Shown: piece by piece, positions 12,001 to 18,000 of the stretch
How the letters are laid out: every line of letters begins with the position of its first letter
Position numbering within the stretch: position 1 is the first letter of the stretch
Source of the DNA: a virus
Lineage: Duplodnaviria > Heunggongvirae > Uroviricota > Caudoviricetes
Virus record (IMG/VR): IMGVR_UViG_2526164602_000012
Strand: one strand, 5' to 3'
Length of the DNA: 18,442 bases
Position numbers: made by a program

Positions 12001-15000
12001 ACTAATCCCTCAGGTGAATCAGGGTGTCGAATCTCTTCTTTTTCCTGGTATTTCTTACGACGTTTTGTCATAATTACTCCTGTGGATTGATCCAGTAATT
12101 CCCTCAGAATTGCATATCAATTTGCTTAAAATCCTCGGTGGCAGCCGGGGATTTTTTCTTTGTGATTTCATCAAGCGCATACTTAAAAGCCCTGCTAATC
12201 GGACTGATGTCTGATGCCATTCCGAAAGCACACAAGACCGAAGCAATAAACCGCCAGTCCGTTCTGCTTATCTTCGATTCATGACAGCCAATCATCTTTG
12301 CCAGACCGCGCTGTGTAAGCGTTGACAGGTTGATGAGTAAATCTGTTTCTGCGCGATCAACGTCGCGCTGTGATAGTTTGCTGTAACTTGTTCGTTCCAT
12401 TTCTTAAGATTTCCAATAGTGAATAGTTAGTTGAAAGGTATGCGTGGAAACGCATATGGCCTTAGTTGGTCAGATATCTTGGGACTCGCTTTTCAGCGAC
12501 GTAGGACGAATGTCCGTTGTTACAAAGAGCGGCTCCGCTTATTAAGCGGCTTTGTGCTCCGGCGGGAACACGTCATCAAGACTTACTTTTGCGCCTAACT
12601 TGTTTAGACACGCAACAAGAGCACGGCATGTTTTAAGGTCTGGGAAGCGACGACCAGATTCCCAATGTCCGATAGCTCCCTGTGTGCATCCAACTGCCTT
12701 AGCAAGTGTTGTTTGAGAGATATTCAGTGACTCTCGATATTTTCGTAGGTTGCTCATATGCCCTCCATAGTAACCACGAATAAAAAAATACAATATGTAC
12801 TTCTCAAATACAAGTAAAAATACACATTGTGCATGGATGGTTCCAGTACAGAGCGTAATAATAAGGACATGAAAATGAAATGGTATGAACTGGCTAGATC
12901 CAGAATGAAAGAGCTCGGCATAACTCAAGAGAAGTTAGCCGAAGAGCTAGGTATGACGCAGGGTGGAATTGGACACTGGTTGCGCGGATCTCGTCATCCA
13001 TCTCTTAGTGATATTGGTGTGGTGTTTAAATACCTTGGTATTGATAACATATCATTCAACCACGACGGGACATTTTCACCTGTTGGCGAATACTCATCGG
13101 CCCCAGTTAAAAAACAATATGAGTACCCTGTTTTTTCTCATGTTCAGGCTGGGATGTTCTCTCCAGAACTCAGAACCTTTACCAAAGGTGATGCGGAGAG
13201 ATTGGTAAGCACAACCAAAAAAGCCAGTGACTCTGCATTCTGGCTTGAGGTTGAAGGTAACTCAATGACCGCACCAACAGGTTCCAAACCTAGTTTTCCT
13301 GACGGGATGTTAATTCTGGTTGACCCTGAGCAAGCTGTTGAGCCCGGCGATTTCTGCATAGCCAGACTTGGTGGTGATGAATTTACCTTCAAGAAACTGA
13401 TCAGGGATAGCGGTCAGGTGTTTCTACAACCACTAAACCCGCAATATCCAATGATCCCATGCAATGAGAGTTGTTCCGTTGTGGGGAAAGTTATCGCCAG
13501 CCAATGGCCTGAAGAGACGTTTGGGTAAAGAGGATAGATGGAGTTTAATGGCCATGAGTATCAAGCGGTCAAAAAGAAGTTCATCTATTCATTGAAAGCA
13601 TAAGGCCATCTGAGTATATCCGTAATGATCTGGATATTGTCTATAACATCAATGACCGGACGATAGATATCGGTGAGCAGCGTCCTGTATGGCAGGGTGA
13701 GGCAGGTGAAAAAACGTCCTGCCATCAACAAGAATCAAGTGCATCCGCTCTCTGGACAGATGGAAAATTTATTGGATGCAAAAAGATATGAAATAACACC
13801 TGTATAGCACGGAGCTTTCTCTGACCGATGCACTTGAAGTTGTTAGGGCTGACCCAGCCTGCTGTTTCTTTAGGTAAGAGAAAAGAGATTTAGGAGATGA
13901 AAGGTCGCAGAGGTGCGGCCTTTTTTATTGAGAGTGGATCTTGAACGGAAATTCTCAAGACTTGAGTCTTGCATGCAAATCAATTCCTGGATAAACTCGA
14001 TCTGAGTCAATAACTTAGAGAGAGAGCAAATGGCAAAGTCAAACGTTAGCGTGCAGGCATTCAAGGACTTCCTTGAAGAGCTTATGTCGCTGAACATAAT
14101 GAAGGAGGCCACCGCTCGAAATTTAAAAAACTCATCCGCTCGCCTCTTAACGGTAGTCCAAGAAGAGGAAATGGGTGATGTTACTCAGCTTGATGTGAAT
14201 GAGCTTGCCGAGCGATACATCAACGCAACTGAGCCGAAGCCTAGCGACAGCAGCATTACTGCATATAAAAGCCGCATGGAAAGTGCAATCAAAAAGTTTG
14301 TAGCTTTCCAGTCTGGTGAAGAAATCCCATACACTCCGATTGACAAAGAATCCAGTGAGGAAAAAGATTTGACTGGCGAACCAACAAAAGTCGAAGGCAA
14401 GGCTAATGCACTTCATACCTATGATCTTCCAGTAGTTCTTCGACCTGAATCAGGGGTTACAGTAACGATTAAAGGCATTCCTAACGATATCACAAACGAA
14501 GAAGCCGAACGCATCTCTTCAATTCTGAAGGTTTACGTTCGGCCTCAATAATGCAAAAGCATTCAGCACAATGTCCAACTCCCCAGTCCGACATTGATGC
14601 TGTTTAACCAGAGCCTCCAAAAGGAGCCCTTGTTAAGGTACACAATATTTGCGATGTAACCTTAGCGCGTCTGGTACATTTTTTCAAGCGGTTGTAGGGC
14701 TGCCGCCAATATGAGAAAACACAGATGTCTACATACAATTTGAATGACCAATTCGATCGAGAAGTTCATGTGAATGCCTATGAACGGATAAGGCATGGAA
14801 ATCTTGAACATGTGTGTGAGCATTATCGCTCAAGGCCACACCGCTAATCATCAACCCGGCCTCCATGCCGGGTTTTCTTTTCCTCTCGCCCAAAAAAACA
14901 CATAACCAATTGTATTTATTGGAAAATAAATAGATACAACTCACTAAACAACGCAATTCTGATCTCTCCTTACATCGCCGAGGCAATACACCCACGCTAA

Positions 15001-18000
15001 AAAACAATACTATTAAATACAAAGCGTTGTAAAAAAACGCCCCGTTTTAGAACAAATTGTATTGACCAAGTTAAGTACATATCGTACTATTTAACCATCA
15101 GCAGGACGCTGGAAGCCAAATGGAACAGACTGGCAGGCTCTTTAAACAACGTCGACTCTCGACTACGTGGCTGAAAAGCCAGATCACCCAACCACATAAG
15201 CTGTGGGATGCAATGCCGAAGCAACCGTCTCAGGAGGAGCTTCGAGATTGCATCGCCAAAGTTTATTCGGGAGGAATCTATGTCCAGAAAAACAGAATTT
15301 AAAGGCACCGCAGCTTCTCGCCGTAGAGCTCGTCGCGCAAACCTGCAAAGTCAGGAGGCGATTAGCTCCGACAAACTACACAGGCCAACCCCATCACGAG
15401 TGGTCTTACAATGCAAACGCAAACCAGCAATGAGAGCAGAAGTAATAACACTGACAACGTTGACCAGAAAATATGAAGGCTCAACTTGTCTTCCAAATGT
15501 AGCTCTTTACGCGGCAGGCTACCGTAAATCCAAACAACTGACAGCAAGATGACTTGTGTTGGTCGCCAGAAAATGAAATTAGGCAGCAAACCACTTATTT
15601 GAGGTGATATATGGAATTTCATGAAAGTGCGATTTGTGATTTTCGCGCTAACGCAAATTCAGTAAAACCACAGCCAATTGCAGTTCTTTTTAAAACAATG
15701 GGTGCGTGGGCTGTTTTATGCTTCGCCGCTGACGACACTGACGCAAGAATGGCAATAGGACAAGAGATGGAGATGGACCCGACAAACGATGAATTCATAA
15801 TTTATGGCGCTCCATCTAATTACTTACTTGATACCTGCAACATTTACAACAAGGCTGTGAACCGCCCCGGAAATCCTGGAGACTAAACTCCCTGAGAAAG
15901 AGGTAAACAGGATGACTAAAAATACTCGTTTTTCCCCCGAAGTCCGTCAGCGGGCGATTCGTATGGTTCTGGAAAGTCAGGATGAATATGACTCACAGTG
16001 GGCGGCAATTTGTTCCATTGCCCCAAAGATTGGCTGTACGCCGGAGACTCTGCGTGTCTGGGTTCGCCAGCATGAGCGGGATACCGGGGGCGGTGATGGT
16101 GGGCTCACCAGCGCTGAACGTCAGCGTCTGAAAGAGCTGGAACGTGAAAATCGTGAACTGCGCCGCAGTAACGATATCCTTCGCCAGGCTTCCGCTTATT
16201 TTGCGAAGGCGGAGTTCGACCGCCTCTGGAAAAAATGATGCCACTGCTGGATAAGCTGCGTGAGCAGTACGGGGTCGGACCGGTATGCAGCGAACTGCAT
16301 ATTGCCCCGTCAACGTATTACCATTGTCAGCAACAGCGACATCATCCGGATAAACGCAGTGCCCGTGCGCAGCACGACGACTGGCTGAAGAGAGAGATAC
16401 AGCGCGTATACGATGAAAATCATCAGGTGTACGGTGTGCGTAAAGTCTGGCGTCAGTTGTTACGGGAAGGAATCAGGGTGGCCAGATGTACAGTGGCACG
16501 TCTCATGGCGGTTATGGGACTTGCCGGTGTTCTCCGGGGTAAAAAGGTCCGTACGACCATCAGCCGGAAAGCCGTTGCCGCAGGCGACCGCGTAAACCGT
16601 CAGTTCGTGGCAGAACGACCTGACCAGCTGTGGGTGGCTGATTTTACTTACGTCAGCACATGGCAGGGCTTCGTCTATGTGGCGTTTATCATTGATGTGT
16701 TTGCCGGATACATCGTGGGGTGGCGGGTCTCATCGTCTATGGAAACGACATTCGTGCTGGATGCGCTGGAGCAGGCGTTGTGGGCCCGTCGTCCGTCTGG
16801 CACCATCCATCACAGCGATAAAGGCTCTCAGTATGTGTCACTAGCCTATACGGAGCGACTAAAAGAAGCCGGATTACTGGCATCAACAGGGAGTACAGGC
16901 GACTCGTATGACAACGCGATGGCTGAGAGCATCAATGGTCTTTACAAAGCGGAGGTAATACACCGTAAGAGCTGGAAAAACCGTGCAGAAGTGGAACTGG
17001 CCACACTAACGTGGGTGGACTGGTATAACAATCGACGATTGCTGGGAAGGCTGGGCCATACTCCTCCGGCAGAAGCAGAAAAAGCTTATTATGCTTCCAT
17101 CGGAAACGATGATCTGGCAGCCTGAGTTCACAGATAAAACACTCTCCAGGAAACCCGCGGCGGTTCACTGCCTGATGGTGGCCTTTATTTTTGGCATAAA
17201 CAACAGAATAAACACAGCACTGTGTATTCATTCCAACGAGTGAATACACGGAGCAATGTCGCTCGTAACTAAACAGGAGCCGACTTGTTCTGATTATTGG
17301 AAATCTTCCTTGCCCTCCAATGTGAGGGCGATTTTTTTATCTGTGAGGATATGAACAGATGTCAAACATCAAAAAAATACATCATTGATTACGACTGGAA
17401 AGCATCAATAGAAATTGAAATCGACCATGACGTAATGACAGAGGAAAAACTTCACCAGATTAATAATTTCTGGTCAGACTCTGGATACCGACTCAATAAA
17501 CACGGCTCTTTATTAAATGCTGTATTAATCATGCTGGCGCAACATGCTCTGCTTATAGCAATTTCAAGCGACTTAAATGCATATGGTGTTGTGTGTGAGT
17601 TCGACTGGAATGATGGAAATGGTCAGGAAGGATGGCCTTCAATGGATGGTAGCGAAGGAATAAGAATTACCGATATCGATACATCAGGAATATTTGATTC
17701 AGATGATATGACTATCAAAGCCGCCTGAGCGCGGCGTTACCGCATACCAATAACGCTTCACTTGAGGCGTTTTTCGTATGTATAAATAAGGAGCACACCA
17801 TGCAATATGCCATTGCAGGGTGGCCTGTTGCTGGCTGCCCTTCCGAATCTTTACTTGAACGAATCACCCGTAAATTACGTGACGGATGGAAACGCCTTAT
17901 CGACATACTTAATCAGCCAGGAGTCCCAAAAAATGGATCAAACACTTATGGCTATCCAGACTAAATTCACTATCGCCACTTTTATTGGCGATGAAAGATG

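Follow-up and report, generated by a model that had tools for sequence, protein, structure and literature searches.

A two-gene cassette with an intervening structured RNA in the rexAB position of Sp5-type Stx phages

The interval between cI and OL/PL

The DNA analyzed here is an 18,442-nucleotide stretch from a tailed phage (Caudoviricetes; IMG/VR record IMGVR_UViG_2526164602_000012), which is referred to as the window. The interval studied, 13529-15060, lies between the repressor gene cI and the operators of the leftward promoter (OL/PL), and carries a cassette of two small genes with a conserved RNA between them. The plus strand of the window corresponds to leftward transcription in lambda. 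The gene order is cro (minus strand), cI (plus strand, ending at 13528 with its stop codon at 13526-13528), the interval, OL/PL (15015-15090) and N. The interval is 100% identical to the immunity region of Shiga toxin (Stx) phages of the Sp5/VT2-Sakai type, and it is found at 100% identity in VT2-Sakai, Stx2 II, 1717, 2851 and Nil2 as well as in 220 complete E. coli genomes, mostly O157:H7. All of its genes are publicly annotated as 'hypothetical protein'.

The positions of the OL operators (15015-15031, 15048-15064 and 15073-15089) and of PL (15062-15090), all given on the plus strand, were transferred from the AP000422 annotation; the 100% identity was measured within 13529-15060, and the remaining operator/PL stretch lies outside the compared query. 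In a simple promoter scan, a promoter-like sequence TTGACC-17-TACTAT coincides with the transferred PL. These positions leave 1.49 kb between the cI stop (13528) and the first OL (15015), in agreement with the approximately 1.5 kb given in an earlier, sequence-only reading of the window. That reading described an accessory locus in the position of the lambda rexAB genes, co-oriented with cI and devoid of Rex homologs, and interpreted it as an exclusion or anti-phage module expressed in the lysogen. Its observations hold in part, with corrections given below, and its interpretation is partly supported. The shared orientation with cI is correct, and so is the absence of a Rex homolog: a tblastn search of the window with RexB and the C-terminus of RexA gave a best E-value of 5.7, and neither the 173-aa nor the 40-aa open reading frame (ORF) of the interval is matched by a hidden Markov model (HMM) of PADLOC-DB v2.

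The interval is a mosaic of three parts. Positions 13530-13921 are approximately 81% identical to the stretch behind cI in 933W-type phages, positions 13902-14883 are 85% identical to Salmonella phage Oslo, and positions 14853-14968 are 88% identical to lambda, with the similarity beginning exactly at the rexB stop codon. The lambda counterpart of this third part consists of the tIMM terminator and the spacer ahead of OL3. Therefore, as for rexAB, the cI stop and the tIMM homolog delimit the cargo slot, and the earlier description of the interval as the variable slot of rexAB is borne out at its right border. Judged by sequence, the slot has two layers. The first layer would be the tail of the cI operon, made up of a decayed DUF3024 gene that encoded a candidate single-gene defence protein, and ending at a first intrinsic terminator. 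The second would be an autonomous cassette, consisting of a promoter, the 173-aa gene, an RNA of approximately 150 nt, the 40-aa gene and the tIMM-homolog terminator.

The 173-residue protein ECs1184

The first gene of the cassette (14030..14551, plus strand) corresponds to ECs1184, also designated H0093 and ORF23 of Sp5, and belongs to PHROG 2602. The ORF is intact and its product acidic (isoelectric point, pI, 4.85), as had been noted before; it is, however, no longer without a place among known families, as its fold assigns it to the core-binding domain. PHROG 2602 has no assigned function, and the protein additionally gives a sub-threshold Pfam match to the phage integrase N-terminal SAM-like domain. 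In an AlphaFold2 model based on 26 homologs, residues 8-94 form a four-helix N-terminal domain with a predicted local distance difference test (pLDDT) value of about 90, followed by a disordered acidic linker (residues 103-127) and a beta-beta-alpha unit (residues 130-165). According to this model, residues 8-94 are a core-binding (SAM-like) domain as found in tyrosine recombinases, and ECs1184 may be a DNA-binding protein. There is no match to Phage_integrase, and neither the catalytic domain of tyrosine recombinases nor the RHR-Y residues are present, because ECs1184 ends at residue 173. In Pfam, NCBIfam, PADLOC and PHROGs, the products of the cassette match families of unassigned function alone.

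The family to which ECs1184 belongs is large, as illustrated by the 650 clusters at 50% identity recovered in an exhaustive HMM search. Among the 150 best listed matches, all lengths fall within 110-238 residues; the majority have 160-200 and share the two-domain layout. Residues Y79, R82, P151 and E158 are invariant in the family, and T28, D50, F90, P134, R138, A159 and I162 almost invariant. Across hosts and phages that have different integrases, conservation of the core-binding domain is 73-83%. Purifying selection acts on the gene, with a ratio of nonsynonymous to synonymous substitution rates (dN/dS) of 0.07-0.24, and among 5426 complete E. coli genomes the gene is present in 234, at an identity of at least 99% in all of them and broken within the gene in none. 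Acidity was considered as a family trait and rejected, as family members have pI values between 4.8 and 9.8 (median 7.9).

No relatives of the C-terminal beta-beta-alpha unit were detected by profile comparison with PDB sequences or by Pfam scans of 33 family members. Matches of this domain to a cucumisin propeptide ('LTEEEAEKIA') and to DUF6400 (E 0.045) are at chance level. A likeness to the C-terminal peptide of FtsZ ('LDIPTFLR' compared to 'FDLPIPLR'; E 4.9 for the full-length profile against B. subtilis FtsZ) was likewise attributed to chance, given that conservation is lacking at the key aromatic position and that a beta-strand is predicted where the motif is located. In ECs1184 itself, the residues concerned are 131-139 (14420-14446), reading DLPVVLRP with the family consensus FxLPIPLR, and they weakly resemble the DIPxFLR of FtsZ. 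Similar strings are found near the C-termini of two types of micro-protein described below (WSFPVR and VFPIPVC in types B and C); both resemblances are probably due to chance. The C-terminal domain also occurs in a stand-alone ORF of 63 aa, P0223, which was found on 311 Enterobacteriaceae contigs and corresponds to the end of the linker and the beta-beta-alpha domain of family member P0049. PHROG 36396 (63 aa) matches the same region. P0223 could be a truncated gene call or a free-standing domain.

The downstream micro-protein

The second gene (14725..14847, plus strand; H0092, PHROG 21154) encodes a protein of 40 aa, designated here as a type A micro-protein, with the conserved motif VxVxxYxRIRxGxLEHVxxHxRSxP. 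It had been pointed out as a Cys/His-containing ORF. It is indeed a real gene, as its dN/dS is 0.06 in comparison with Oslo and 0.05 between phage SH2026Stx1 and Symbiopectobacterium, but just two His residues are conserved and the Cys is not. The protein is conserved in SH2026Stx1 and in the Symbiopectobacterium prophage despite divergence of the DNA to saturation, a strong AGGAG ribosome-binding site precedes the gene in SH2026Stx1, and the gene accompanies the 173-aa gene at two different genomic sites.

A small ORF on the same strand lies downstream of every enterobacterial homolog of the 173-aa gene that was examined, save for the truncated copy in Yersinia phage YP3. These ORFs fall into three types without evident mutual similarity: type A of approximately 40-45 aa, type B of 56-57 aa (PHROG 33859), and type C of 47 aa, which has a weak treble-clef zinc-finger signature. 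All three are under purifying selection (dN/dS 0.03-0.14). The pairing was counted in the 77 IMG/VR loci with enough downstream sequence, and in all but one of them (76/77) an ORF of type A (43 loci), B (22) or C (11) follows the large gene on the same strand. The spacing between both genes is 150-205 nt, except in two loci where it is 413 nt. The types do not track the tree of the large gene, since relatives at 73-100% identity bear A, B or C. Based on these sequence comparisons, the 173-aa and 40-aa ORFs form one portable cassette, a unit overlooked in the sequence-only reading.

More distant homologs on chromosomes (Wenzhouxiangella and one metagenome contig) have a different gene downstream, which overlaps and encodes a membrane protein of 196 aa with hydrophobic segments, or else a transmembrane-like peptide of 46 aa. 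These homologs (L025 and L027, Wenzhouxiangella, 4555-5145; L015, 2970-3110) are 24-27% identical and have housekeeping genes as neighbours.

The structured RNA between both genes

Besides the two genes, the cassette contains a conserved RNA that had also gone unnoticed. In the window, the element (14560..14709, plus strand) is of a variant designated R2, which was delineated by RNAalifold and covariation. The R2 alignment of six sequences yields 44 pairs in five helices over 14564-14706: hairpin H1 at 14564-14602, H2 pairing 14607-14615 with 14667-14675, H3 pairing 14617-14618 with 14623-14624, H4 pairing 14632-14642 with 14655-14666, and H5 pairing 14688-14694 with 14701-14706. In these helices 91% of cells are paired, and 10 pairs have changed on both sides, compared to at most 3 in slid controls. 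None of 500 shuffles reaches the observed value on four of the five measures, while 234 of the 500 do so on the fifth, the number of further pair types. The R2 model scores 146 bits in the window, where the fold of the single sequence has a z-score of -3.8. R2 is common to Oslo-type loci and several type C loci.

A second variant, R1, is found in type B loci and some type C loci. It covers approximately 105 nt after the stop codon and has four helices with 29 pairs (RNAalifold), with 95.5% of cells paired and 13 changes on both sides, as against at most 5 in slid controls; none of 500 shuffles reaches the observed values. With the R1 model, 18 more loci score 80-109 bits for the element. A third variant occurs in loci of the SH2026Stx1 type, where the R1 model matches in part, at 12.7 bits. 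The R1 model does not detect the window element (bit scores of at most 2.5), and the R2 model detects neither R1-type nor SH2026-type elements. Because the two models lack cross-detection, the claim of a single RNA family rests on position, similar topology and the motifs TAGCGG...CAAG. Every variant occupies the same location and has a hairpin directly behind the stop codon; a long-range helix and the TAGCGG and CAAG motifs are also common to them. On these grounds, a common origin of the variants is plausible.

The element does not correspond to a known RNA family. At gathering score, Rfam gives no match in 13880-15100, the best being GadY over the terminator with 20 bits, whereas 45 are required; for the R1-type element in Proteus, the best match is RAGATH-25 with 11.9 bits. 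The small RNAs (sRNAs) AsxR and AgvB, known from prophages of enterohaemorrhagic E. coli (EHEC), were considered as candidates and rejected, as they are located near stx.

As for its action, the minimum-energy fold of the window sequence offers the 3' strand of H2 another partner around the AUG of the small ORF (14667-14673 pairing with 14722-14728), while the ribosome-binding site of this ORF can be paired by the U tract. Such alternative pairing suggests that the RNA may gate translation of the micro-protein.

The tip of H1 (14576-14589) consists of 14 nt, CAACTCCCCAGTCC, which occur as the exact reverse complement, GGACTGGGGAGTTG or AGACTGGGGAGTTG, in Oslo-type relatives. The relatives compared are phage Oslo (L017) and loci L052, L059, L101 and L107. 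The tip is flanked by an inverted repeat CAATGTC/GACATTG and both orientations are found in several lineages; it represents a small hairpin-bounded inversion.

Predicted transcriptional autonomy of the cassette

The last gene of the cI transcript, which starts at the PRM promoter, is a DUF3024 (PF11225) pseudogene at 13538..13877 on the plus strand. It was delimited by tblastn with the intact 113-aa gene of phage Stx2a_F451, which matches in three segments and three frames at 81-83% identity. One base is missing near 13570 and another near 13714, and at 13794-13796 a TGG codon has become TAA. The ORF behind cI is thus broken, as had been reported, but its repaired length is 113 aa and not the 84 aa proposed before. 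An intact frame of approximately 113 aa is not present in the window copy, given its two frameshifts and one stop. The intact DUF3024 protein matches the PADLOC candidate PDC-S43 with an E-value of 4e-41. An intact DUF3024 gene lies ahead of a cassette of at least 99% identity in two IMG/VR contigs (L049 and L050), and the 173-aa gene's homologs are likewise preceded by one in prophages of Proteus and Providencia and in phage SH2026Stx1.

Intrinsic terminator 1 follows at 13899..13926 (plus strand). Its 11-bp stem pairs 13899-13909 with 13914-13924, and a run of six U residues ends at 13926. The predicted energy is -17.5 kcal/mol (z -4.54), and the hairpin GGTCGCAGAnnTGCGGCC together with its T run is kept in Oslo (Salmonella), Proteus and Serratia relatives, which confirms the strong terminator described behind the first ORF. 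In all likelihood, it closes the cI transcript before the cassette.

A predicted sigma-70-type promoter lies at 13969..13997 on the plus strand, in a block that is conserved in relatives. It consists of a -35 hexamer TTGCAT (13969-13974), a spacer of 17 nt and a -10 hexamer TAAACT (13992-13997); the conserved block reads GTCTTGCA...CTGGaTAAACT, and its Proteus equivalent is TTGCAA-17-TAGAAT. The simple scan does not list this promoter because the -35 hexamer matches at only 3 of 6 positions. The sequence-only reading had singled out a 10-bp perfect palindrome here, TTGCATGCAA at 13969-13978. It is composed of the -35 hexamer TTGCAT and four unconserved bases: Oslo has TTGCATATGA and Proteus has TTGCAAATCT at this site, and the first half, TTGCAT, is all that is conserved. 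With at most one mismatch, the palindrome has two matches in the window, as against 1.46 expected. It was therefore discarded as a feature and as an operator, since its second half is not conserved and its frequency does not exceed chance.

Intrinsic terminator 2, at 14853..14883 on the plus strand, has an 8-bp GC-rich stem (14853-14874) followed by a U tract, with an energy of -14.3 kcal/mol and a z-score of -3.35. The second terminator reported before is thus real and, according to the alignment with lambda, represents the tIMM homolog that forms the right border of the cargo slot. With a conserved terminator ahead of it and a conserved promoter of its own, the cassette would not be an extension of the cI operon. 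A natural variant is found in E. coli strain 150 (L031, NZ_CP028592), in which a deletion of 140 bp (approximately 13882-14021) between short AGAGA repeats has taken out terminator 1 and the promoter. The 173-aa gene, with its ribosome-binding site, thereby joins the cI transcript, and its expression in the lysogen would therefore be kept.

Mobility of the cassette

Five or more different repressor genes are followed by the cassette and its promoter at an identity of at least 99%. As far as it was read, the repressor of one of these phages (L037, from IMG/VR) is nearly the same as lambda CI. In turn, an unrelated cargo of two genes lies between cI and N in phages that share the cro-cI of the window (97-98.6% nucleotide identity). 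This is the case in PhiR63_2 (L029, 3629-4935) and PhiR11_1 (L030, 3688-5068), which have the same cro-cI-N as the window. One of these two cargo pairs weakly resembles PDC-M24A and PDC-M24B (DUF6978, DUF1828), and the other, of 283 aa and 163 aa, has no family match. In 933W-type phages, the slot is filled by DUF3024 together with a RuvC-like gene and the kinase Stk, a match to PD-T4-6.

Homologs of the cassette are present in other phage regions as well. They lie among the tail-fibre genes on the opposite strand in Erwinia, beside the integrase (the int-att end) in Yersinia phage YP3, and in the nin region in Symbiopectobacterium, between the replication genes and ninB and beside a DUF4145 gene. 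In the latter locus (L022, 2948-4873), the large gene and its type A partner directly follow the DUF4145 gene, annotated in PHROG 1305 as 'DNA binding protein', on the same strand; this arrangement may represent a larger accessory island. The conserved predicted promoter, the flanking terminators and the presence or absence among similar phages are those of a moron, and the cassette seems to behave as such, rather than as a component of one repressor circuit.

Published genetics and expression

ECs1184 features in two published studies; no further paper that mentions it was found in a literature search. Mondal et al. used sacB allelic exchange in a K-12 lysogen to remove Sp5 genes in frame and without leaving a marker, and obtained 43 mutants (PMC5155283). 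Deletion failed for just two genes, ORF23 (ECs1184) and ORF21 (ECs1180), and these were concluded to be probably required for stable lysogeny (PMC5155283). With regard to the sequence-only interpretation, the failed deletion, the sole recorded phenotype, suggests addiction or maintenance of the lysogen no less than it suggests defence.

In a study by TRAPP (purification of total RNA-associated proteins), the ECs1184 protein was quantified in cultures of EHEC Sakai (PMC7618764). This supports the expectation that the genes are expressed in the lysogen, where the cassette's own promoter may be in use. The TRAPP enrichment had a false discovery rate (FDR) of 0.065, and crosslinking of ECs1184 to RNA in a polynucleotide kinase (PNK) assay was no better than that of the green fluorescent protein (GFP) control (PMC7618764). 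With this published assay at background level, an RNA-binding role of ECs1184 was rejected here.

Proposed function and alternatives

The analysis establishes the anatomy of the cassette, the fold, the coupling of both genes, covariation in the RNA, movement from one immunity type to another and purifying selection, whereas promoter use in the lysogen, DNA binding, the roles of both proteins and any anti-phage effect are inferred. We tentatively propose that the cassette is a two-component module of the toxin-antitoxin type or of the abortive-infection/exclusion type, a reading that we consider plausible but short of probable. The cassette would be transcribed in the lysogen from its own sigma-70 promoter. 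The large protein would act as a DNA-binding regulator and neutraliser and the micro-protein as the effector, with the folded leader RNA gating translation of the latter, and the module would serve prophage addiction, exclusion of other phages, or both. As the large protein would neutralise the effector, loss of the large gene alone would be deleterious. The proposal is based on the near-obligatory pairing with swappable partners, the elaborate leader before the small ORF, the residence in a defence hotspot, and the failed deletion of the first gene alone. The hotspot character of the slot is illustrated by Stk/PD-T4-6, DUF3024/PDC-S43 and the PDC-M24-like cargo.

Several points weigh against this proposal. 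Homology to known toxins, antitoxins or defence proteins was found in none of Pfam, NCBIfam, PADLOC and PDB sequences, and a gap of 170-200 nt with a folded RNA is unusual for pairs of type II toxin-antitoxin genes. The micro-proteins are neither hydrophobic nor recognisable enzymes, so their toxicity is a guess. Yersinia phage YP3 has the large gene but neither the 3' half of the RNA nor the small ORF, which means that the former can be maintained by itself. Moreover, the acidic N-terminal domain (pI 4.85) is atypical for a DNA binder, and ECs1184 showed no strong RNA binding in the PNK assay (PMC7618764). Lastly, the failed deletion is the negative result of one study, in which the unrelated ECs1180 failed likewise (PMC5155283).

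Some of the same observations would fit a classical superinfection-exclusion or abortive-infection system that is harmless to the lysogen, in which case the failed deletion would be technical. The core-binding-domain protein would sense or bind DNA or protein of an incoming phage, and the micro-protein would be its cofactor. The location in the rex slot and in other moron hotspots with proven or candidate defence genes agrees with such a system, as do the combination of a conserved component with swappable partners, which is typical of defence systems, and the proximity to DUF3024/PDC-S43 in several lineages. However, PADLOC gives no match, the enterobacterial versions lack a recognisable enzymatic or membrane effector, and a technical failure fits poorly with the successful allelic exchange of 43 other Sp5 genes (PMC5155283). 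We therefore regard this explanation as rather doubtful.

ECs1184 has also been seen as a lysogeny factor, the authors of the failed deletion having proposed that it is needed for stable lysogeny (PMC5155283). It would then be an accessory regulator, a dimeric DNA binder that represses a lytic or anti-repressor function or blocks excision at core-type sites; its loss would induce the prophage, and the small ORF and the RNA would be secondary. The predicted core-binding-domain fold and the position next to cI are compatible with this role. On the other hand, at least five repressors that are unrelated to one another are followed by an identical cassette, and phages with the same cro-cI do without it and have other cargo instead. 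There are also homologs among tail-fibre genes, at the int-att end, in the nin region and at chromosomal sites outside phages, which does not suit a component of one circuit. A core-binding domain that is 73-83% conserved across hosts and phages with differing integrases likewise speaks against this role. Such a regulator thus seems unlikely. Least probable is a host-directed lysogenic-conversion factor without a role in phage-phage conflict, acting as a transcription factor or nucleoid-associated protein or by interference with host XerCD or other tyrosine recombinases: the modelled DNA-binding fold, the borderline enrichment in the nucleic-acid-associated proteome (FDR 0.065; PMC7618764) and the distant family members among housekeeping genes are in its favour, but it leaves the near-obligatory micro-protein partner, the structured RNA and the failed deletion unexplained.

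Returning to the toxin-antitoxin-like or exclusion-like module, the cassette could conceivably be the founding example of an unrecognised three-part system in Enterobacterales prophages, composed of a non-catalytic core-binding-domain protein, a structured RNA and an interchangeable micro-protein and needed for the viability or stability of the Sp5 lysogen, although we would not expect this broader claim to hold in full. If true, addiction or abortive infection would here be brought about by a module of a new type, whose RNA gates a micro-protein effector, and the stability of Stx prophages and the release of toxin might be influenced through it. Sp5-type phages bear stx2a in E. coli O157:H7, and an undeletable gene beside cI bears directly on the stability of the toxin prophage. 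Besides this, the present analysis ties together an orphan protein family, three micro-protein families and an RNA absent from Rfam, all previously unrelated and 'hypothetical' or unannotated.

Other features of the window

An ORF of 60 aa, ECs_5705, is annotated in RefSeq at 15120-15302 (plus strand), between PL and N; it spans the nutL region and overlaps the start of N. In AP005153, minus-strand ORFs B55-B57 are annotated that overlap the conserved plus-strand genes of the interval. Further downstream, an IS3-family element occupies 15858-17125, having inserted near 15858, with transposase ORFs at 15912-16238 and 16235-17125. From its end sequence TGAACCGCCCCGG and its ORFs of 108 aa and 296 aa, it is taken to be IS629, and the Rfam ALIL frameshift pseudoknot is found inside it at 16193-16309. 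The element sits approximately three codons before the end of the homolog of ECs1180 (ORF21), the C-terminus of which is altered (91 aa compared to 83). The other reportedly undeletable gene of Sp5 is thus disrupted at its 3' end in this natural prophage.

Elsewhere in the window, Rfam matches at gathering score are located at 1012-1223, 2634-2874, 6456-6539, 7454-7639 and 17787-17845. They comprise STnc100, three tRNAs (2634-2874, minus strand), sRNA-Xcc1, C4 antisense RNA and the lambda cIII thermoregulator. The three tRNAs at 2634-2874 are presumably those upstream of stx. The C4 antisense RNA adjoins isrK, in an arrangement like the P1-type immunity-I control of the anti-repressor.

Comparison with known systems

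Type II toxin-antitoxin systems resemble the cassette in having two small co-oriented genes. The first product is acidic, with a predicted DNA-binding domain and a disordered segment, the second is small (and basic in types B and C), and the first gene, ECs1184, is reported as undeletable. The genes are linked in 76 of 77 loci and at two genomic sites, as expected for such a pair. However, there is no family homology, as searches of Pfam, NCBIfam, PADLOC and PHROGs place neither the 173-aa nor the 40-aa protein among known toxins or antitoxins; moreover, the genes lie 150-200 nt apart with a structured RNA between them, and the second product has just 40-57 residues.

With tyrosine recombinases such as lambda Int, XerD and IntI4, ECs1184 shares the core-binding domain, but it lacks the catalytic domain and instead continues into a beta-beta-alpha domain of 45 residues. 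This also sets it apart from the recombinase-like repressors MrpR and SroF, which keep a full, inactive catalytic domain, whereas ECs1184 has none.

The morons of lambdoid phages (Juhala et al. 2000, as cited in PMC4104026) are, as far as described there, comparable units with their own promoter and terminator. Like them, the cassette is absent from some near-identical phages and sits between functional blocks. The term moron names this architecture alone and carries no functional meaning.

The lambda rexA-rexB pair occupies the same slot between the cI stop and tIMM, in the orientation of cI and likewise with two genes. The cassette nevertheless differs in several respects. It has no sequence similarity to RexA or RexB, and neither of its products is a membrane protein, as RexB is. 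Furthermore, Rex is co-transcribed from PRM, whereas the cassette follows a terminator and has its own predicted promoter, and terminator 1 and the separate promoter argue against co-transcription with cI. The Stk locus of the 933W type uses the same slot in sister Stx phages, with DUF3024 right after cI and 81% nucleotide identity of the post-cI stretch to the window, the hairpin included. There, DUF3024 is followed by a RuvC-like gene and a Ser/Thr kinase, while in the window DUF3024 is dead and the cassette takes their place. The lambda rex slot, from the cI stop to tIMM, can thus be described as a cargo-exchange site that accommodates proven (Stk), candidate (PDC-S43 and PDC-M24-like) and uncharacterised modules.

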